Source: Anolis carolinensis (taxonomy: Eukaryota). From it: 64,000 bases of DNA. The stretch spans positions 18,546,647-18,610,646 of the forward strand of contig NW_026943820.1 of the NCBI RefSeq assembly GCF_035594765.1, in the 5' to 3' direction. The notes under the pieces were generated by a model. The model worked only from the letters and a program-made list of their open reading frames with translations. It was not told the DNA's origin and did not search any database. This document shows positions 15,128 through 51,545 of the stretch, piece after piece (positions within the stretch are counted from its first letter, which is position 1; every line of letters starts with the position of its first letter). Position numbers and translations under genes: made by a program.

Positions 15128-15560
15128 CGGGGTTGTTGTATGTCTTTCGGGCTGTGTGGCCATGTTCCAGAAGCATTCTCTCCTGACGTTTCGCCCACAT
15201 CTATGGCAGGCATCCTCAGAGGTTGTGAGGTATGGAGAAAACTAAGCAAAGAGGTTAATATATATCTGTGGAAAGTCTAGGGTGAGAGAGGTCAGTGTGA
15301 ATGTTGTGTAGTTAATCACTTTAATTAGCATTGAAAAGCTTATCTGCTGTCTTCTTCCTGCCTCTGGGGCATCCTTTGTTTAGAGTCGTTAACTGCCCTT
15401 GGTTGATTCATGTCTGGAAATCCTCTGTTTTCAGAGTATTGCTTTTTATTTACTGTTCTGATTTTTGAGTTTTTTAATACTGGTAGCTAGATTTTGTTCA
15501 TTTTCATGGTTTCTTCCTTTCTGTTGAAGTTGTCCACATGCTTGTGGATTTCAATGGCCA
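15128..15560 (-). mobile_element. Penelope-like element 3' fragment
   Basis: Encodes AIEIHKHVDNFNRKEETMKMNKI (end of the GIY-YIG region), followed by terminal sequence with a hammerhead motif. Confidence 0.88.
15182..15222 (-). ncRNA. Minimal type I hammerhead ribozyme motif
   Basis: CCU CUGAGGA U GCCUGC-CAUAGAU-GUGGGC GAAAC GUC AGG: both core boxes, stem II, palindromic ACGU stem III and a GUC cleavage site. Confidence 0.75.
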
Positions 15561-19751: not shown

Positions 19752-21644
19752 CTTCAAACAAACAGAATTCTGTTAGTTTATCAAACAGGGAATCAATCAA
19801 GTAACACCACATAGTGCTGCTCTTCCATACTGGAAGCAAATATAAACAGAAGAAAGTCAAAGTTATTAGTAAGTGGAACTTGTGGTCAGATTCCCTCCAG
19901 AGTCAAACAGAAATGCCTTGGGCACCTGGCCAGGCAGCAACTGGGATAGTCACTAACCTGCTTGCTTTCTTTAAAAAGCAAAATAACAACATACAACATG
20001 TCCTTAAACTATTGAGTATGCAAACAATTTCTAATTTTGTTAGTTGCTTCTAAGCATTCAGATATAAAAAATCTGTGTGTCAGAATTGCCTAAGAATTCT
20101 GTTCAATGACAAGCACAATTCATCTTAAACTTGGCTCTGTTACACCTCAATTTAGAATCATCACACACCAATCTGGAAAATGCACCTTTACAGAAGCCCT
20201 GCATGGGCGATTTGTCTTCATCAGCACACAAGATACATCCTTCTTCAGTGACTAAGCAAGCTGCACTGTCTGCCAGATAGATCGTTTGAATTATCTCTAA
20301 CTAGCAGGAGTGATCTCTGTTACTGCCACCCAGGGCTTACATAGCTGTTAGCATTTTTATGCTGTAATGTTTGACTGTAAAGCTTTGTGGTTCTACTGAT
20401 GGTTCAAGTCTAGGAAAAGGAATGGGTAGTTTCCAAGTGCCACTGCAAAGAATGTTTTGCCATAGACATGTAAGTCCTTGCTCCAAAAGGTCTTCAAAAG
20501 TGGAGCTATGTTTTAAATTTTAATCTTACATTTAATTCCCTGCCCATTTTAGACCAGGGCTTCTAAACGAGGGAGTCTATGGAGAATTCTGTGAGAGCGA
20601 GATAGGGGTTTACAAAAGGTCGTGATTGAAAACAAACCCTATCTGCACTGATTGCTAAACACGTAAGTTGGGGATCTGCACCGCCCCCCCCCCCGCCCCC
20701 CCGTTTTGCACAGACCTTCTAGCACTACACTCTCATAAGGAAGAAGAAAAGCAAGGAAGGCCAGCCAGTTGTTCTATTGATGCTCACAAGGTGAACAGAT
20801 GCAAACAGGCAGCCTTCTAGTCCTCCTTCGTCCCTCTCTCCCAGCAGGGCTTGAAGAGCTCCCCATATGTCCCCTTCATCCTCATTGGTCACAGGGCAAG
20901 GAGGAAGGCCAGCCAGCCAGCTTAGAGGGTGGCTGCTCAATCGCATCTCCCAAGGTGACTGAATGTAAAGGTAGCAATAACTGAGCAGCTGGCTCGCTCC
21001 CTGGCCTTCCTTCCTTTGCTTCTTATATGTGAGAGTGCATTATTTATCACTGTGAAGTCAGAACCCCTGGGCCTGTCTTGGCTGAGGAAAGAATGTCCGT
21101 CTTCTTTCTCAGTCAGAAAGCACAAACCAGAGGTGGAGGTGGCAAGCCCAATAGGGAAACAAGTCATCCAGGAACACCTGGCCTGGCCGCTCTAAATGAA
21201 TTCAAGTCTCCAGGGCCGGATCAACTACACCCAAGAGCACTGAAGGAACTAGCGGAAGTTATTTCGGAACCACTAGCAATCATTTTTTAGAGTTCTTGGA
21301 GAACAGGAGAAGTCCCAGCAGTTTGGAGGAGGGCGAATGTGGTCCCTATCTTCAAGAAGGGGGAAAAGGACGATCCAAACAATTACTGTCCGGTTAGCCT
21401 CACGTCGATACCAGGCAAGATTCTGGAAAAGATCATTAAGGAAGTGGTCTGCAAACACTTAGAAACAAATGCAGTCATTGCTAATAGTCAACACGGATTT
21501 ACCAAAAACAAATCATGCCAGACTAATCTGACCTCTTTTTTTATAAGAGTTACAAGCTAGGTAGATGCGGGGAATGTCGTGGATGTAGCCTATCTGGATT
21601 TCAGTAAGGCCTTCGACAAGGTCCCCCATGACCTTCTGGCAAAC

Positions 21645-22589
21645 TGTGATGGTTCATGGGCCATGTAGTCCTGTTCCTAGTGCTGTTGTGACAGATGAAG
21701 AGGAAAACTTGGGTTTTCCACCACTTCAGCCAGAAAAGGAACTATCTCAGCCAGAAATGGAGCCTTTGCACCTGCAGGAGGTTTGTATTCCAGAAGTCTG
21801 TCAAACAAGCCCTGAGCCAAAATCTCCCCCGTTTTCTCGCCATGATTTTTGTAAACAACAGAGGGGAGTCGAACAGGCGTCTCGCAGGAGTGCTAGGATA
21901 GCTGCTAAGCATTCAGCTGATTAAGCCTGCTTTCCATGGGAAACTTTAAGGAGTCATGCATCTGGACTCAGAGAATAGCTTTCGTTTCTGGTTCTCCAGA
22001 GAACTGCTCTTTGGCGGGAAAACGGGACCCTATTTAGGTGTTTTACCCACAAAGGGATCTTGCGGAGTCAATTCGTCAGCTACCGGAGTAGCGTGTGTGG
22101 ACAGCTACTCCCGCTTCCAAGCCTTTGTTCCTGATTCCAAGCCTTCGTTTTCAGCCTTGTTTGCCCCACGGATCTTGCCTTGCTTTCCAGGACTCAGCCT
22201 TGCCTTGTTTCCCGGACCTTGCCAAGTAATTACCACGGATCTTGTTCTTGTTCCTCGTTTTCTTGTTGCCTTGAACCAAGCCTTGTTTTTCCAAGAACCA
22301 AGTTGCTTCCTAGCCTCGCTCTAGTTTCATGGACTAAAGGACCTTGTCATCTCCCCTCACTTTGCTTGGCAAAGTGAGTGTTTCGGTTATTGGATTACAA
22401 CTTTGGACCTTAATATTTCATATTGGACATTGCTTCTTTGGACTAATTTTGCCCTTTCCTGAAAGGTCTACTTCTGGACTATTTTCTACACTTGTTTTTA
22501 TTAACTTTATATATTCCTTCAATAAAGATATTAGATAGATTCTGGCCTCTGTGTATGGTTATTGGTGCTCTGCAGCCTGGGTCCTGACA
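21645..22589 (+). mobile_element. Solo LTR, family A copy 1 (945 bp), inserted into a CR1
   Basis: TGTGA...TGACA termini, 5-bp TSD CAAAC (21640-21644 and 22590-22594), TATA-like TATTTA at 22031, AATAAA at 22521. Confidence 0.92.
21649..21924 (+). CDS. LTR family A U3 ORF, 91 aa, ending RRSARIAAKHSAD
   Basis: Collinear with the ORFs in copies 2 and 3, with the same start and stop positions and synonymous-biased changes in the C-terminal motif. Confidence 0.6.
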   Translation: MVHGPCSPVPSAVVTDEEENLGFPPLQPEKELSQPEMEPLHLQEVCIPEVCQTSPEPKSPPFSRHDFCKQQRGVEQASRRSARIAAKHSAD

Positions 22590-24964
22590 CAAACAAGCTA
22601 GTCAAATGTGAGCTAGGCAAAACTACAGTTAGGTGGATCTGTAATTGGTTAAGCGAACAAATCCAAAGAGTGCTGACTAATGTGTCTTCTTCATCCTGGA
22701 ACCGTCCTGGGTCCGGTTCTGTTCAACATCTTTATTAACGACTTAGACGAAGGGTTAGAAGGCACGATCATCAAGTTTGCAGGCGACACCAAACTGGGAG
22801 GGAAAGCTAACACTCCAGAAGACAGGAGCAGAATTCAAAACGATCTTGACAGATTAGAGAGATGGGCCGAAACTAACAAAATGAAGTTCAACAGGGACAA
22901 ATGCAAGATACTTCACTTCAGTAGAAAAAATGAAATGCAAAGATACAGAATGGGGGATGCGGGGCTCGACAGCAGTATGTGTGAAAAAGATCTTGGAGTC
23001 CTCGTGGACAACAAGTTAAACATGAGCCTACAATGTGATGCAACAGCGAAAAAAGCCTATGGGATTCTGGCCTGCATAAATAGGAGTATAGCGTCTAGAT
23101 CCAGGGAAGTCATGCTACCCCTCTATTCTGCCTTGGTCAGACCACACCTGGAATACTGTGTCCAATTTTGGGCACCGCAGTTGAAGGGAGATGTTGACAA
23201 GCTGGAAAGCATCCAGAGGAGGGTGAATAAAATGATCAAGGGTCTGGAGAACAAGCCCTATGAGGAGCGGCTTAAAGAGCTGGGCATGTTTAGCCCACAG
23301 AAGAGAAGGCTGAGAGGAGACATGATAGCCATGTACAAATACGTGAGGGGAAGTCATAGGGAGGAGGGAGCAAGCTTGTTTGCTGCTGTCCTGCAGACTA
23401 GGACGCAGAATAATGGCTTCAAACTACAGGAAAGGTGATTCCACCTGAATATTAGGAAGAACTTCCTCACTGCGAGAGCTGTTTGGCAGTGGAACTCTCT
23501 GCCCCGGAGTGTGGTGGAGGCTCCTTCTTTGGATGATATATTTGGTTGGCTACTGTACCAAGCAGGTGACTGGAAGCAATAGCGGTAATGAGGAGTGAGA
23601 CCCCTATCTTACTTATCTCGTGACTGGTGAGGATGGAAGGGGTGCACTGGGAGTTTGCCAAGCATTGCTAGAAGGGAAGGAAGGATCGGGTACTGATGCT
23701 GGCTCCCTTGCTGCCTTACTTGAGGAAAGCGCGAGGAACGACAATGGCCAACTGCAGCAGCTATGGCAGTACTGATCCTGTGGATATGGGGTTTGTATTG
23801 TAATTCTCATGTAGGGGATCCTGACAGAAAAGCTCATGTAGGGGATCCTACAGAAAAGCTAGTCTAACTACTGGTAATTATATTACTCTGGCTAACATGA
23901 AGTTCTGTAACAATAGGCATAACAGTCCTGTTCCCGTTTCCTCAGACATCAATCTCGCTGTGTACAGCAGTAAGTGTGCTTAGGATTATGCTCTGAGATC
24001 AGTTTTGAAATATATATCAATAGCCTATTAAGTTCTTAGGTGACTTGTTTATACTACAGGGCCCAAGTGATTGCTTTAATACATTGCTTAGAAAACAGAG
24101 ACAAAAACACAAACTACCCAAACAGGCCACACAAGATATTTGCTTTAAATACCAAATACTGCTTTAAAAGACTGAGAGTCCGGTAAAATAAAAAGTTGAG
24201 ATGCTCAATTCAGCGCAAGAAGCATAGAACACTCAGAACATATGTACATCTCATTGCAATAGAATAAAAAATAAAAAATACAAGTCATACATTTAGGATT
24301 GGTGATATTTTTGATCAGAATAGTAATAACATGTCATTTGCTTGGGGTCTTAAATATGAAAGAAACAGTCACAAGGCCTGAAGCTCAATGAATTGTGGAG
24401 GCACGAGTCCAAATTTTATATGAAACCCCTTAAAGAGAAGTTATTTCTAAACAGCCAAAATGAATATTCTCAAAGGCTTTTTATTTTTTCCTTGTTTTGC
24501 TATCTTTCCATTTTGTCAACATTTTCATGCTAATTTTTCTGGAGAAGTATGTCTTTTCCATTGTATTACCGTAAGAGGTGACAAATCTTTTTGCAGTGCT
24601 GATTAGTACTCTTTTAAAATCCCAACGTTAATCAAGAAGGAAGGATACACATGTATGTTATTTCACACACAACTAGTCTTTTCAAATAGGACCCCCTTGT
24701 CAAGAATAAGAGTCTTTATTGAGTTTGTTTAACATGGTAAGAATATCTGACAAATTGTCAGGAAAGAGAACAGCAGTGCTGCAAATAGTAGGTCATGAAA
24801 TTGATATTAAGCTTATCAATTTAATGACCTATATGGGAATAAATATATCAGCTTCTAAAGAAGAGAGCACAACAGCCAATCATTGTTACTGTAACTGTCT
24901 CATTACTGTTTTTTAATGAAAACAATTCTTACATATCTGGATGGTCCCAATCCAATTACTAGAC

Positions 24965-27602: not shown

Positions 27603-28460
27603 TGTCAGGACCCAGGCTGCAGAGCACCAATAACCATGCGCAGAGACCAGATTCTATCTAATATCTTTATTAAGGAATTATATAAAGTCAATAAAAACAA
27701 GTGAAGAATATAGTTCAGAAGCAGACCTTTCAGGAAAGGCCAAATATAGTCCAGGAAAATAATGTCCAATATAAGATATTAGAGTTCAAAGTTATAATCC
27801 ATTAACCGAAACACACACTTTGCCAAGCAATAGTGTGGGGAGATGACAAGGTCTTATAGTCCATTGAAGCTTGACAACAAGGCTGGAACATAAGCTTGAT
27901 TCTTGGCTGGATCAAAGACTTGAAACGTGGCAACTTGAAGCATGAAACAAGGTCCGTGGCAAAACGTGAGACAAGGCAAGACTTGAAACTAGATCCGGGA
28001 AGCAGGGAACAAGGAATACGAAGTCCACACACGATCTCTCTCTCAAGCTGATCAATTGACTCCGCAAGGTTCCCCTTGCGGCAAAACCCCTATATAGGGT
28101 CTTGTTTTCCCGCCAACAGAACACTTTCCCTGGAGAACAAGAAGCGAGACCCAACTCTGTCCAGATGCATGACTCCTTAGAATTTCCCAAGGGAAGCAGA
28201 CCTAATCAGCTAGTTGTTTGGCAGCGATTCTGAGACTCCGGCGATTAGCCTCCCTGACTCCTCTATCTCTATTATAATTGTCCTTTCAGGAAAACGGGGG
28301 AGAATTCTGCCCAAGGCTTGTTTGGTTAACTTCCTGAGGACAAACATCCTCCAGGTGGAGAGGCTCCGATTCAAGCTGAACCGGTGGAAATCCCATGTTT
28401 TCCTCCTCGTCTGCCACAATAGCACTAGGAACGGGACTACAAGGCCCATGAGACATCACA
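27603..28460 (-). mobile_element. Solo LTR, family A copy 2 (858 bp), nested in a family B LTR
   Basis: Same termini as copy 1; TSD ATCCC (27598-27602 and 28461-28465); TATATA at 28091; AATAAA at 27666-27671 on the minus strand. Confidence 0.92.
28202..28456 (-). pseudogene. LTR family A U3 ORF, 84 codons with one internal TGA
   Basis: Reading through the TGA at 28286-28288 (an Arg codon in the other copies) gives KDNYNRDRGVREANRRSLRIAAKQLAD*; 21 nt shorter, in frame. Confidence 0.6.
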
Positions 28461-33958: not shown

Positions 33959-34079
33959 GGCTTTAAAGGTAACCAATTTATTGTTGGTTTATTGACTACA
34001 ATTTATTGTTGTGTTTCTATTAGTTATTTCATTTTGATTGAGGTGTTTTATGTACATCCTTGTACGCTGTTATTTTATG

Positions 34080-34368
34080 TTATTCGGTGAGACTGAAAGG
34101 GGGCCGGGCTGTGGCGCAGGCTGTTGAGCAACCAGTTGCAGCCAGCTGCAACAAATCACTCTGACCAAGAGGTCATGAGTTCGAGGCCAGCTCGGAGCAC
34201 CGCATTTGTCTTGTCTTTGTTCTATAATAAATAATAATAATCTTTATTTATACCCCGCCACCATCTCCCCAACGGGGACTCGGGGCAGCTTACATGGGGC
34301 CATGCCCAGAACGATACAATATAACAAAATATAAATAAAACAAGAAATCATAACACATTAAACAATAC

Positions 34369-34400
<32 letters not shown>

Positions 34401-34767
34401 TTACAGTAAACAAAATCAAAAGAACAGTAGAACAATAAAACCAGGGCGGGCCACATGAACACTAAGATAAAACTCGGGGTGAGAAAGGAAGTAAGAGTAA
34501 AAACCACAGAGAACAGGGTTATAGAGTGGTGGGGCAATCTGGAGGACAGATATTGGAGGAGAACAGCAAAAAGGGATATATGTAGCAATTACTCTCCAAA
34601 AGCACAGCGGAAGAGTCATGTTTTCAGGTCTTTCTTAAAGGCTGCTAGTGTGTGCTATGTTAAGGCATTGAATGTTTGCCTTATATGTGTAATGTGATCC
34701 TCCCTGAGTCCCCTTCGGGGTGAGAAGGGTGGAATATAAATACTGTAAATAAATAAAAATAAATAAA
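34080..34767 (+). mobile_element. Related SINE interrupted by an antisense L2 3' fragment (about 34226-34653)
   Basis: Head at 34080-34224 and tail at 34655-34767 match the SINE at 54574. Confidence 0.75.
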
Positions 34768-35060
34768 GCAGGGCCTCCCTGGAAAATCTTAATCTCCGTG
34801 GTGGTTCATAGCAGGAGATGCGTTCGGACAGGTAAACTGGGCCGGGGCCGTTTAGGGCTTTATAGGCCCAAGCCAGCACTTTGAATTGTGCTAGGTATCT
34901 AACTGGCAGCCAATGGAACTGACGCAACACGGGAGTTGTGTGCTCCCTGTACGTCGCCCCAATTATTAACCTGGCTACCTCTGTTTGGACTATTTGAAGC
35001 CTCCGAACAGTCTTCAAAGGCAACCCCACATAGAGCGCGGTGCAGTAGTCTATCCTAGAT
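34768..35060 (-). mobile_element. L2 LINE ORF2 C-terminal fragment
   Basis: GLPLKTVRRLQIVQ..ARLI...EHTTPVLRQFHWLPVRY..QFKVL..YKALNG.GP.YL. Confidence 0.88.
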
Positions 35061-35294
35061 TTACTGGACTGGTGTGGTGGTTAAGTACAGAGGTGTTCTC
35101 GTTCTGGGATACAACAGCCCGGGCTCTTAATGGCAAGTGACCAAGGCCCCGCAGCAGGCTCCTCTCCTTCTCCCCACCTCAAGCCCAACATCCCCGCACC
35201 GTCACTATGGCGACCCGGCTGCGTTCTTCCCCAAAGAAGGGCGACACTTCGAGGCTCCTTCCCGTCTCTCTCCCTCCCTCCCTCTCCGCCCTAC

Positions 35295-35526
35295 CTTTGT
35301 AGTGAACGCGCAGGTTGCCCTGGGAGAGGCCGATGTAGTTGTACTTGTCCTTGGGGCTCCAGGCGCGCGGGAGCGGCGTCTCGGCCAGGTTGACGGCGGG
35401 GTAGAGGCGGCGGAGGCGCTGGCTCAGCTCCTGCTCCTCCGGGGCCAGCGGCGAGGGCGGCGGGGGCGGCGGAGGGGCCAAGCCCGAGTCTCCCCCTGGG
35501 AAGCTGGTGGCACCCACGTCCGCCAT
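35295..35526 (-). CDS. RANBP10: RANBP10 coding exon 1 (start codon, Pro-rich N-terminus, start of SPRY domain)
   Basis: MADVGATS...[41 protein letters not shown]; GT donor at 35294; 232 nt. The short N-terminus and head-to-head TSNAXIP1 favour RANBP10 over RANBP9. Confidence 0.95.
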
Positions 35527-35924
35527 CTTGGATCCACTGTTGTGTCAGCAGGAGAGAAGCAAAACTCGTCTCCCCGACTGGCCAATGGGAGGCGGGCTCG
35601 GCCACAATGGGGCCGAAAGGCACTCTGGGAAAGCGGGTTCGCTCGCCTATTGGCGCCCAGCGCGTCTCGAGCGGCGCTGGACTACAAGTCCCGAAGGGTA
35701 CCGCGCGAGAGAGGGCTAACGCAACACGTCACGACGCACGCCGAAACAAACAGTCCCCTCAGAAAACTCACAGCAACCCAGTCTCCTCAGAAGTCTGTGG
35801 CCGAAGCAGGCGAGTGGAGGAGGTTTTTCGCCTGGGGAGAAGGAAGAAGCGTGGCTATAGGGCAGGCATAGGCAAACGTCGGCCCATCAGGTGTTTTGGA
35901 CTTCAGTTCCCACAATTCCTAGAC

Positions 35925-36372
35925 TGGGTGGCTGTGAGTTTTCCGGGCTGTATGCCCATGTTCCAGAAGCATTCTCTCCTGGCGTTTCGCCCACATCTGT
36001 GGCATGCATCCTCGGAGTTTGTGACGTCTGTGGGAAACTAAAGTGGAGTTTGTGTCCAGGGTGGGAGAAAGAACTCTTGTCTGTTGGAGGCAAGTCTGAA
36101 TGTTGCAGTTGGCCACCTTGATTAGCATTGAATGGCCTTGCAGCTTCAAAACCTGGCTGCTTCCTGCCTGGGAGATGTGAGCTGTCCCTGATTGTTTCTT
36201 GTCCAACAAAGGATTCCCCCCAGGCAGGAAGCAGCCAGGCTTTCAAGCTGCAAGGCCATTCAGTGTTAACCAAGCTGGCCAGTTGCAACATTCACACTTG
36301 CCTCAGGTAGACAAGAGTTCTTTCTCCCACCCTGAACATCATTTCACAGATATATAAACCCCACTTGCCTAA
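35925..36372. mobile_element. Penelope-like fragment with inverted arms, inside the bidirectional promoter
   Basis: About 36050-36172 is the reverse complement of about 36218-36335; homologous to the other Penelope-like copies. Confidence 0.85.
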
Positions 36373-46365: not shown

Positions 46366-46847
46366 GTGACACACTGATCTGCCTGTCTATTGCATAACCG
46401 ATCCTCAGAAACATAGTTTTAGAGCCCTGTTTCCCAGTGTGAGACACATGCCCCACAGGGGAGCAATTTTATTTTTAAGGGGGGCAATTTGAGAAAGAGT
46501 TATTAATAGCTAATTGTTTTGCATTTCTTATGGTTTTAGGGGCCTCATATACAGTATATAAATATGTATTGCGACATACACATTTTGAAAATTAAAATCA
46601 GAATGTATGAGGCAGTCCGCTTGTGACAATGGAAAAGGAAAAGCCTGCTCATAGAGAGGAAGGAGTGGGGAGAGAATGAACTAGAGAGAGAATGAGCACA
46701 GAAAGGGGAGGCGCCTTTCATTTCAAGCACCCCACTTCTCTCAGTGTCCTGTTGACATGACACAACAAGCTACCCAAGATATATTACAAATATTTTTGTT
46801 CTGCATATGAATGTAGTAAAAAAATCTGTGAAAAAATCCAAAGCATA

Positions 46848-47700
46848 GGGTTGATGTGAGTTTTCCGGGCTGTATAGCCATGTTCCAGAAGCATTTTCTC
46901 CTGACATTTTGCCCACATTTCTGGCAGGCATCCTCAGAAGTTGTGAGGTCTGTTGGAAACTAGGCCAGTGGGATTTATATATCTGCGGAATGTCCAGGGT
47001 GGGAGAAAGAACTCTTGTCTGTTTGAGGCAAGTGTGAATGTTGCAATTAATCACCTTGATTAGCATTGAAAAACTTTGCAGCTTCAAATCCTGGCTGCTT
47101 CCTGTCTGGGGAGATCCTTTGTTGGGAGGCATTAGCTGGCCCTGATTGTTTCATGTCTAGAATTCTCCTGTTTTCAGAGTGTTGTTCTTTATTTACTGTC
47201 CTGGTTTTAGAGGTTTTTTTAAATACTGGTAGCCAGATTTTGTTCCTTTTCATTGTTTCCTCCTTTCTGTTGAAATTGTCCCCATGCTTGTAGATTTCAG
47301 TGGCTTCTCTGTGTAGTGTGACATGGTGGTTGTTAGAGTGGTCCAGCATTTCTGTGTTCTCAAATAATATGCTGTGTTCAGGTTGGTTCGTCAAGTTCTC
47401 TGCTGTGGCTGACTTCTCTGGTTGAGTTAGTCTGCAGTGCCATTCGTGTTCCTTGATTCGTATCTGGGCAATGCTGTATGGTATACAATAGACTCCTGCA
47501 GAGGTGAGAGGATCCCTCTTGTCCTTTGCTAAAAGTCCCCTGCCTATAAACCTCCCTTGCCTAGTTTCAAGTATACCTTACAACCTCTGAGGATGCCTGC
47601 CATAGATACAGGCGAAACATCAGGAGAGAATGCTTCTGGAACATGGCCTTACAGCCCGGAAAACTTACAGCAACACAGTGATTCCAACCATGAAAGCATT
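46848..47700 (-). mobile_element. Penelope-like element with an inverted terminal segment
   Basis: NQPEHSILFENTEMLDHSNNHHVTLHREATEIYKH on the minus strand; inverted terminal copy at about 47545-47700 with a near-intact hammerhead at 47584-47624. Confidence 0.88.
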
Positions 47701-48308
47701 CGGCAAAAAATTCAAACCATACCTTATTTTCATAGGTAAGTCAATATTTAATATGAAAAAAATGTATCAGCTGTAAGAATATTAATTTCAGGTAGCAGGA
47801 TATTGTTTCAGATTCTCACAAAATACAGTGAAGTTGGACACTGAAGTTACCCTGAGTTTCATGCAGACGACGCAAATCAATTTGTTATTTTATTTTAATC
47901 TTCCATTGATGCCATGTTTTTAGGAAGCTTGTTTAGAGCAAGTTAATGGCCCTAGTTTCTTCCACATGAATAAAGAAGAGTTAACTTTTTGAATAATAAT
48001 AATTATATGGCATGAGGGAGAAGGGGGGTATCAGGATTTTAGAGGCTTAGGTGGGGCATGGCCAGAAAAAGGTTGGGGAGCACTTTTTTATACCCTTCTG
48101 AATGCAATTGTCATTTTATGAGACAGTGTGAGGTCACGATTCTTCCATAATTTCCATACTGAAAGCTCTACAAGTATGCAATCAATGGCATGGCATCATA
48201 CATTGTTATTACAGAAATCGGTGCTCCTTGTTTAGTTTCCTGAGCCCATCAAAAGGCACTTCTTTTGGAGATTCAGTAATGTTGAAGTGCTTTTTTTCTC
48301 TGTAGAGG

Positions 48309-49255
48309 TGTCACGACCCAGGCTGCAGAGCACCAATAACCAAACACAGAGGCCAGAGTCTATCTAATATCTTTATTAAGGAAATATATAAAGTTAATAA
48401 AAGCAAGTGTAGGAAATAGTTCAGAAGTAGACCTTTCAGGAAAGGTCAAAATTAATCCAAAGAAACAATGTCCAATATGAAATATTAAGGTCCAAAGTTG
48501 TAATCCAATAACCGAAACACCCACTTTGCCAAGCAAAGTGAGGGGAGATGACAAGGTTCTTAGTCCAAGGAACTTGATGTAAGGCTAGGAAGTAAACTTG
48601 ATTCTTGGAACACAAGGCTTGATACAAGGCAACAAGGTACGAGGAACAGGGACAAGATCCGTGGTAAATACTTGGCAAGGTCCTGGAAAGCAAGGCAAGG
48701 TCCGTGAAGCAAAACAAGGCTGGGAACGTGAACGAAGGCTTGGAAACAGGAACGAAGGCTTGGAAACGGGAACGAAGGCTTGGAAACGGGAGTAGCGCTG
48801 TCCACACACAACCTACTCCAGTTGCTGACGAATTGACTCCGCAAAATTCCTTCAGGGCAAGGAACCTAAATAGGGTCCCGTTCCCACCAAAGAACACTTC
48901 TCTGGGGAACCAGAACCGAAAGTCAATCTCTGTGTCCAGATGCATGACTCCCTAAAGGTTCTCATGAAAGCAGTCTTAATCAGCTGAATGCCTGGCTGCG
49001 ATTCTCAGGCTTCTGCGATTAGCCTGTTGAACTCCTTTTTGTTGTTGATAATAACTACGGCGAGAAAATGGGGGAGATTTTGACTCAGGGCTTGTTTGGC
49101 AGATTTCTGGAAGACAATCCTCCTGCAGGTGCAAGGACTCCAGTTCTGGCTGGGAAAGTTCCAATTCTGGCTGAAATGGTGGAAAACCCAAGTTTTCCTC
49201 TTCATCTGCCACAACAGCGCTAGGAACGGGACTACATGGCCCATGAGTCATCACA
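48309..49255 (-). mobile_element. Solo LTR, family A copy 3 (947 bp)
   Basis: TG...CA termini, TSD AGAGG (48304-48308 and 49256-49260), AATAAA at 48372-48377 on the minus strand, three 20-bp tandem repeats at 48731-48790. Confidence 0.92.
48976..49251 (-). CDS. LTR family A U3 ORF, 91 aa, ending RRSLRIAARHSAD
   Basis: Intact and collinear with copy 1. Confidence 0.6.
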   Translation of the reverse strand: MTHGPCSPVPSAVVADEEENLGFPPFQPELELSQPELESLHLQEDCLPEICQTSPESKSPPFSRRSYYQQQKGVQQANRRSLRIAARHSAD

Positions 49256-50196: not shown

Positions 50197-50920
50197 GTTG
50201 TCAAAGGCTTTCATGGCCAGAATCACTAGGTTGCTGTGAGTTTTCTGGGCTGTATGGCCATGTTCCAGAAGCATTCTCTCATGACGTTTCACCCACATCT
50301 ATGGAAGGCATCCATAGAACATCCAAGGAACATGAAAGGCACTGCAGACTAATTCAGCCAGAGAAGTCAGCCATAGCTGAGCAATTGATGAACCAACCTG
50401 AACACAGCATATTATTTGAGAACACAGAAATGCTGGACCACTCTGACAACCACCATGTCAGACTACTCAGAGAGGCCAATGAAATAATGTGGACAATTTC
50501 AACAGAAAGGAGGAAACCATAAAAATGAACAAAATCTGGCTATCAGTATTAAAAAACCCTCTAAAATCAGGACAGTAAGTAAAGAGCAACTCTCAGAAAC
50601 CAGAAGAATTCCAGACAGAAAAACAATCGGGCCAACTAACACTTTCCAACAAAGGATTCCCTCAGGCAGGAAGCAGCAAGTCTTTCAATCTGCAAGGCTA
50701 TTAAATGCCAATCAAAGTGATCAATTGCAACATTCACACTTGCCTCCAACAGACAAGAGTTCTGTCTCCCAACTTGGATTTTCCACATCTATATAAACCC
50801 CATTTTCCTAGTTTCCAACAGACCTCACACCTTCGAGGATGCCTGCTATAGATGTGGGTGAAATTTCAGGAGAGAATGCTTCTGGAACATGGCCATATAG
50901 CCCGGAAAACTCAAAACAAC
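50197..50920 (+). mobile_element. Penelope-like element with an inverted 5' segment
   Basis: KEHERHCRLIQPEKSAIAEQLMNQPEHSILFENTEMLDHS; flanked by a direct repeat CTGATGTTTAATTC(T/C)GT. Confidence 0.88.
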
Positions 50921-51545
50921 CTGATGTTTAATTCCGTTTTAATGTTTGTATATTTTTGGATTTTAAATTGTGTAAATAATCATAATACACATAAACATGG
51001 TTGCATGCTACCAGGTGATTTTCCTGAGAAATGATTTCCTAGAGCATGGCTTCTTAATCCTTTTCTGGTTGTGTCCGCTTTTCACCTGATGCAACCCTTA
51101 GGGCCTGTAGGTATATAAAATAGGAATACATATCAAACATTTATTGATAATAACACATAAAGAAATTTATTTTGCACATATAACAAAGCACATCAGCAAG
51201 CCACAGTTTCCTGGAAACTGCTGAGCAAGAATATGTTTTGGTATATCACATTAAAAGCAGGATCAGCGTAAACAAGTCCCAAGTCTTTTTTTTCTTACAA
51301 ATTACAAAAAACTATGACTAGTTCAGCTTTGAGTGATGTAAGGGCTACAGTGCTGGAAGAGGATGTGAAGTTCTGATTTCAGGTCCACTTCCTCCCTAAA
51401 GCTCATTAGAAGCCAAAGAAACATCTTACTGGCCTGAGCGAGATGTTCCTATTCTGGTGGAGAATTTAATCCCTGTAGAAAACCATGATTTACGTCACAG
51501 TTTCAGCAATAAATCTGGGTGTTATTAAACCATTTTCTCTTAAAG

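Follow-up and report, generated by a model that had tools for sequence, protein, structure and literature searches.

A selectively constrained Pol tail encoded in the 3′ LTR of an Anolis carolinensis chromovirus ends in an HMGN-like arginine motif

Described systems and the solo LTRs of the window

The access of vertebrate LTR retrotransposons to chromatin, and their choice of it, have been little studied. The closest described architecture is that of plant CRM group A, in which the 3′ LTR likewise encodes the end of the polyprotein; that portion is a putative chromatin-targeting element, the CR motif, which replaces the chromodomain and targets centromeres (PMC3059260). The anole element presented here keeps its chromodomain, the LTR adding a second motif, and the likeness concerns the LTR-overlap architecture only. 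The Tf1/sushi (V-clade) chromoviruses, for which a self-priming arrangement has been described, differ from the anole element in that the anole Pol continues for about 115–125 residues past the chromodomain and has an HMGN-like end (PMC6317226).

Concerning the arginine motif itself, RRSAR of HMGN2 and RRSSR of Dsup lie on the nucleosomal acidic patch, the last arginine serving as the anchor and the first two, together with the serine, providing extra contacts; the density of HMGN2 includes RRSAR, the contacts in the cryo-EM structure of Dsup are R363, R364, S365 and R367, and modelled phosphorylation of the serine is predicted to block binding (PMC12487698). Acidic-patch binding of Dsup through the three arginines is likewise described in PMC12480509, and yeast Dot5, with RRSARIAT, binds the acidic patch and needs its three arginines (PMC13347269). 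In common with HMGN, Dsup and Dot5, the anole motif has the RRSAR core—three arginines and a serine—in disordered-type surroundings (PMC12487698, PMC12480509, PMC13347269); unlike them, it is carried by a retrotransposon Pol and lacks the second serine of the HMGN consensus RRSARLSA, and its binding is predicted.

With regard to integration, acidic-patch tethering is known for foamy virus Gag and has been proposed for MLV p12 (PMC9040877, PMC11054761, PMC5072296), the available parts of PMC3601003 and PMC12159745 holding nothing further on the subject. As these sources describe them, foamy virus Gag, MLV p12 and KSHV LANA also use a short arginine motif of a mobile element to hold the nucleosome, which in retroviruses steers integration; they are, however, Gag-derived or DNA-virus proteins with other motifs, whereas the anole motif is located on Pol, behind the chromodomain and in U3. 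In the literature searched, which was seen in part, the acidic-patch tethers so far are retroviral Gag-derived proteins and those of DNA viruses, and the HMGN-like motifs tested outside HMGN are those of Dsup and Dot5. Among the literature matches listed, which covered few subscription papers, none described the anole tail or reported a retrotransposon integrase with an HMGN-like or acidic-patch motif. The combination, in one chromovirus, of an LTR-encoded Pol tail under selection and a probable anchor of the HMGN type is probably new, the extension of Pol into the 3′ LTR being known from plant CRM.

The stretch of DNA analysed, i.e. the window, covers 64,000 nucleotides of the A. carolinensis contig NW_026943820.1. 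It contains three solo LTRs—copy 1 at 21645..22589 (plus strand, 945 nt, target-site duplication (TSD) CAAAC), copy 2 at 27603..28460 (minus strand, 858 nt, TSD GGGAT) and copy 3 at 48309..49255 (minus strand, 947 nt, TSD CCTCT)—all with TG...CA ends and with exact 5-bp TSDs, by which each of them is a complete solo LTR. These LTRs, the ATG at LTR nucleotide 5 and the collinear frame running to a ..AD-stop had all been pointed out in the first-pass annotation and are all found in the window. The frame occupies 21646..21924 in copy 1 (plus strand; the last 92 Pol codons and the stop), 28459-28202 in copy 2 (minus strand; 85 codons and the stop, with one internal stop) and 49254-48976 in copy 3 (minus strand; 92 codons and the stop), and the ATG of copy 1, at 21649 on the plus strand, corresponds in full-length elements to a Met within Pol. 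The motif codons quoted earlier are present in all three copies, encoding the HMGN-like RRSARIAAK in copy 1 (21883..21909, plus strand), RRSLRIAAK in copy 2 (28243-28217, minus strand) and RRSLRIAAR in copy 3 (49017-48991, minus strand), and the sole length difference within the frame is, as noted previously, the in-frame 21 nt in copy 2. The single internal stop reported for copy 2 is present as well, at codon 58; among 30 near-identical loci examined, it occurs in 2/28 of those scored, the other 26/28 reading through, and it is not a trait of the subfamily.

The three LTRs had also been called diverged, which holds for their relation to one another, the aligned parts being about 73–88% alike in pairwise comparison, but not for their age: over the ORF, copies 1, 2 and 3 show 0, 2 and 1 nt differences, respectively, when each is compared with the 3′ LTR of a full-length member of its own subfamily, and all three are young. 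The LTR of copy 1 is 99.9% identical to the 5′ LTR of the full-length element L031, and its frame has 0 differences from the 3′ LTR portion of Pol in that element. Further signals of copy 1, all on the plus strand, are a TATA-like box at 22031..22036 (LTR nt 387, mapped from the equal-length L031 LTR and located 3′ of the stop codon), a putative R start at 22062..22071 (10 nt complementary to the PBS of full-length copies, i.e. self-priming) and an AATAAA poly(A) signal at 22521..22526 (LTR nt 877). It may be added that copy 1 interrupts a LINE reverse-transcriptase fragment, which we take to be CR1-like and which continues on both sides of the TSD (window 21400-23436).

Parent element and Pol read-through into the 3′ LTR

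Own-genome searches showed near-identical LTRs to be abundant and paired about 5.4 kb apart, and 14 paired-LTR full-length elements were taken for study, the comparable pairs among them differing by 0–8 nt between their LTRs. The element has a gag of about 330 aa with a CCHC knuckle, overlapped in the −1 frame by pol, the 1,256-aa product of which is ordered PR-RT-RH-IN-SH3-chromodomain. Pfam assigned RVT_1 to Pol residues 257-417, RNase H to 480-610 and integrase H2C2 and rve to 722-890, with an Asp protease at 51-97 below the cut-off; the chromodomain (PF00385, residues 1090-1138, E 6.6e-9) follows the integrase core, and its nearest solved structures are those of HP1/CBX5 (E 5.6e-8), the three cage aromatics being kept. 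The PBS can pair over 10 nt with LTR nt 418–427, a complementarity on which the self-priming call rests and which would place the start of R near nt 418, 31 nt downstream of the TATA-like box. TG..CA ends with an exact 5-bp TSD were seen in 34 solo LTRs, a set too small for a target preference to be read from the composition of the sites. Judged by these sequence features—the Pol order, the chromodomain, the self-priming PBS, the TG..CA LTRs and the 5-bp TSD—the element is a Tf1/sushi-type Ty3/Gypsy chromovirus.

An 18-nt PPT-to-LTR pattern gave 4,411 matches in the genome and 0 with the reversed control, so that this lizard genome has no fewer than 4,411 internal-to-LTR junctions, and their density over the first 33 Mb of contig 1 is about that of the whole genome. 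The closest named proteins are those of Anolis carolinensis, 95–96% identical over the SH3-chromodomain region, and the presence of its Pol in UniRef makes it probable that the element has already been catalogued. One young full-length element was seen to sit inside an older-subfamily LTR (L027:781-1520).

In 13/14 of the full-length elements, the last long pol frame crosses the PPT and ends 85 or 92 codons into the 3′ LTR, at the very stop given in the first-pass annotation, the remaining one being frameshifted before the LTR; the read-through is found in full-length elements of all three subfamilies represented in the window. Thirty junction loci were also taken, as the first in genome order and irrespective of protein similarity. 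Between the chromodomain and the LTR, across the PPT, the frame is open in 30/30, and in 29/30 it reaches the RRSxRI end after 85, 92 or 97 LTR codons, one junction diverging partway through the tail. Pol has 85–97 of the residues beyond its chromodomain inside the 3′ LTR, and its stop codon occupies LTR nt 278–280, entirely within U3 and upstream of the TATA-like box, where the frame had indeed been placed before. Because the full-length copies read from pol through the PPT into the LTR, the LTR frame is the C-terminal tail of Pol/integrase and not a stand-alone gene. Of the two options raised earlier, it is thus the second one, a Pol/integrase tail read into the LTR, that is seen in the full-length copies, and pol is in frame through the PPT, as the annotation had proposed to verify. 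The 5′ and solo LTRs bear the tail ORF because U3 is copied.

The other option, a small stand-alone accessory protein, is not borne out, the frame being continuous with Pol at all 30 junctions and the ATG lying within the LTR end TGTGATG. This ATG is situated about 410 nt upstream of the predicted transcription start and, since it precedes both the TATA-like box and the R start, the LTR promoter would not transcribe the ATG frame. A stand-alone gene was rejected on these grounds, and the parallel drawn with MMTV sag and HIV nef has to be abandoned too, as there is no separate ORF apart from Pol; for the LTR-encoded anole tail, the right parallel is the CR motif of plant CRM. It is very improbable that the frame is also expressed alone, from its own ATG via a spliced or internally started RNA, as an accessory protein. 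The ATG is found at LTR nt 5 in 11/11 lineages and two database proteins, P0138 and P0253, end in the tail without a chromodomain; yet the continuity with Pol and the position of the ATG relative to the start speak against such expression, and the conservation of the ATG is explained by its place in the terminal TGTGATG, the expected recognition sequence of integrase. In four presumed-RNA runs, in the form of contigs, which cannot show starts or absence, the whole element is covered with no high-depth GT-AG joint into the tail. P0138 bears the annotation of an uncharacterised anole gene; both proteins may stem from gene models that run into solo LTRs, or from exonisation. Annotators should beware that the solo LTRs carry an intact-looking 90-codon ORF liable to be absorbed into gene models.

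Purifying selection on the tail

Selection was assessed on one natural copy per lineage, with 11 lineages, the copies being chosen as intact and no consensus being used. In the tail frame, pairwise dN/dS has a median of 0.33 and a range of 0.14–0.52 over 50 pairs, 5 others having been left out as saturated; four other frames have 1.04, 1.13, 1.10 and 1.21, which supports the earlier claim that the frame is coding; the antisense frame sharing third positions has 0.53. Stops number 0 in the tail frame of the 11 representatives—chosen as intact—and 22–94 in the other frames. When pooled, with the oldest lineage left out and ranges by codon bootstrap, dN/dS is 0.35 (0.25–0.48) for the tail and 0.03 (0.01–0.15) for the 9 motif codons; the linker has 0.40, the 15 codons preceding the motif 0.46 and the last four codons 0.95. 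For integrase and chromodomain, it is 0.06–0.07 (7 lineages). At the R,R,S,R columns there are 8 distinct synonymous and 0 non-synonymous variants over the 11 lineages, as opposed to 62 and 173, respectively, in the 88 other columns (Fisher P 3.5e-5), although, as lineage pairs share history and are not independent, confidence limits and P values err on the optimistic side. A second conserved block, SPxFxR, lies 15–20 residues before the motif, and GFxP and HGP are conserved near the LTR edge.

In a frame-blind DNA alignment, the ORF has 2 distinct gaps, 15 and 36 nt long, and the region after the stop has 59, only 9/59 of which are multiples of three. The dN/dS values and the indel phases, which the first-pass annotation had put forward as the way to decide on coding, therefore agree: the frame is constrained, the gaps in the ORF are all in-frame and frameshifting gaps come after the stop. 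The Pol tail is under purifying selection, and the read-through in full-length copies supports the earlier view that this selection acted in the active element rather than on the solo copies.

A neutral read-through, with Pol having lost its stop and the conservation reflecting a DNA-level constraint on U3 or merely young age, is scarcely credible. The copies are young and U3 does hold promoter elements, but the amino acids are held at a tail dS of 0.64 while arginine codons alternate between the AGR and CGN families, the other frames have dN/dS near 1, and frameshifting indels start right after the stop; this explanation was rejected as contradicted by dN/dS, indel phase and the R,R,S,R column counts. 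As a separate observation, dS between the same lineages (3′ ends of L008, L034, L072, L105, L119, L122 and L134) is 0.68 in the LTR-encoded tail and 0.36 in the integrase, a roughly twofold difference that may be due to LTR exchange between lineages or to a constraint on the pol RNA.

The HMGN-like motif, its relatives and its proposed role

Across the 11 lineage representatives the motif has the form RRS[ALT]R[IL][AI]A, with R-R-S-x-R, including the three essential arginines, invariant in 11/11; overall, the fourth residue varies between A, L, T and V. Lysine substitutes for arginine at two adjoining basic columns and never at the three motif arginines; some anole copies have RQSLR or RRNLR instead. 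The linker is net acidic (−7 to −12) with 9–18% proline, and the last 36 residues of the tail are net basic (+3 to +6). The RRSARIAA of the window is identical to the RRSARIAT of Dot5 in 7/8 positions, and the positions that never change in the retrotransposon (R,R,S,R) are the published acidic-patch contact positions. This position-by-position match strengthens the case, drawn from sequence comparison, that the motif likely functions at the acidic patch. In predicted complexes of the last 36 residues with the H2A/H2B of this genome, three runs gave 0.76, 0.00 and 0.33 (mark 0.34; controls 0.00–0.01), values that speak neither for nor against binding; AlphaFold 3 also fails on the HMGN2–nucleosome complex (PMC12487698). 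Pfam returned no match for the tail and no wider HMGN similarity, the ESM Atlas nothing for the tail (best score 0.78), and the matches listed by a PDB sequence search were all to the chromodomain, none to the tail. Membership in the HMGN family was rejected, the motif not being the full RRSARLSA and the protein being a Pol tail without a Pfam match.

The motif is not confined to the young copies. An older, much diverged anole subfamily, represented mostly by solo LTRs, has a frame of 92 codons whose linker is very different and whose end is RRSARLAA in 11/15 loci and RRSVRLAA in 4/15. The LTR frame continues the PPT frame in both of its 2 PPT junctions, as in young copies; in both, the frame is broken between the chromodomain and the PPT, so that read-through in this subfamily is presumptive. 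The wall-lizard Pol has a 132-residue acidic tail that is otherwise barely similar and ends in RRSARLKAR, two wall-lizard subfamilies sharing the end RRSARLKA[RK]; the chance of RRSxR[LI] in a shuffled wall-lizard tail is 0.0006. This tail was found via the chromodomain, and its place in the LTR would follow from the amino-acid junction only. A tail-only protein search yielded just 2 anole clusters among 38 candidates. In the 120 proteins among which the wall-lizard tail was found (143,335 residues), RRSxR[LI] has 4 occurrences, all past the chromodomain: two are from anole and one each from wall lizard and frog.

The exact motif is absent from the related acidic tails of the viper (RKTMGLL), the rattlesnake (RSMKHL/RSMRHL) and the worm lizard (RPVSLRPKR); [RK]R[ST]xR[LIVM] occurs in the tail of 0/81 single-chromodomain matches and RRSxR[LI] in 0/89 matches outside the named squamates (mostly fish). 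In 56/89 of the latter, RGRP, presumably an AT-hook-like core, stands just after the chromodomain (e.g. P0024, P0066, P0089), and the fish relatives retrieved have short tails, often with RGRP, unlike the anole Pol. In the integrase C-terminal tree, based on 33 rows of database matches with none dropped and no named reference elements, the squamate elements cluster with a support of 94/96, just under the starred level. When wall-lizard and frog Pol pieces were used as queries against the own genome, few or no loci were obtained, and no second family for study. Beyond a GGGS junction, many of the RGRP fish tails have about 20 more residues, the last of them being SP[DE][FY]; a short, conserved read-through into the LTR is thereby suggested for fish as well. 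The worm-lizard, viper and rattlesnake proteins P0141, P0168, P0196 and P0286 have acidic tails of 100–125 residues with other basic ends (RPVSLRPKR after KRGRP; RSMKHL), possibly representing alternative anchors.

Short arginine motifs are common in disordered regions and may be import signals, kinase sites or nucleic-acid binders. We consider it unlikely that the basic end of an integrase-borne tail is a nuclear-import signal or a DNA-binding arm instead of an acidic-patch anchor. The precedent of yeast Ty integrases, which have C-terminal import signals, the net charge of the last 36 residues, the RGRP of most matches outside the named squamates and the basic snake tails without RRSxR would all fit such a role; classical import signals, however, favour lysine, which never occupies the three arginine positions although it is found beside them, the serine is held too, and the spacing equals that of tested acidic-patch binders.

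The explanation we favour, to which we give a probability of roughly 0.6, is that the selected, 3′-LTR-encoded tail of the chromovirus Pol binds the H2A–H2B acidic patch through its terminal RRSxR and so tethers the integration complex to nucleosomes. A flexible tether on the integrase is proposed from the invariant contact positions, the exclusion of lysine at the arginines, the acidic linker, the basic end and the HP1-like chromodomain. Pol would be made by −1 frameshifting from gag, and the protease would likely leave the tail attached to the integrase. Recognition of a methylated H3 tail would fall to the chromodomain and its three cage aromatics, while the acidic proline-rich linker of about 60–80 residues could let the basic end reach the nucleosome face, where the last arginine of RRSxR would act as the arginine anchor; phosphorylation of the serine may switch the binding off. 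The tether would thus work alongside the HP1-like chromodomain, the solo and 5′ LTRs presumably carrying the tail coding sequence passively, as U3 copies.

A distinctly more improbable alternative is that the nucleosome-binding tail is cleaved off Pol as a separate small tether, in the manner of MLV p12 or foamy Gag, or that the motif is chiefly a docking site for a kinase or host protein. The long low-complexity linker after the chromodomain, the additional conserved blocks SPxFxR, GFxP and HGP and the Gag-derived nature of the retroviral tethers (PMC9040877, PMC11054761) would agree with it, but no cleavage site was recognised, the integrases of chromoviruses terminate in the chromodomain region, and the CR motif of CRM, in the same position, is counted as integrase (PMC3059260).

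If the motif of the integrase-bound tail binds as predicted, HMGN-type anchors would gain a new natural example. The motif would then be a candidate explanation of why a family with thousands of young copies has been so successful, and animals would have a counterpart to the targeting motif that plant centromeric retrotransposons encode in their LTR. A wider reading, which we regard as tentative and, on balance, rather doubtful, sees the integrase of squamate chromoviruses as a two-handed nucleosome reader, combining the HP1-like chromodomain, for a methylated H3 tail, with an independently evolved, LTR-encoded acidic-patch anchor of the HMGN type, possibly phospho-switched. The region after the chromodomain would then be a fast-evolving tether slot, filled by RGRP in fish, by HMGN-like motifs in lizards and by the CR motif in plants, and the lizard tether, being in U3, could be exchanged between lineages together with the promoter.

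Elsewhere in the window, positions 35131-36039 contain two overlapping long frames in a GC-rich region (52% over 34001-36000), possibly a CpG island or promoter, and another interspersed repeat family is present in both orientations at 1653-1952, 15130-15558, 35926-36339, 46841-47706 and 50198-50929.
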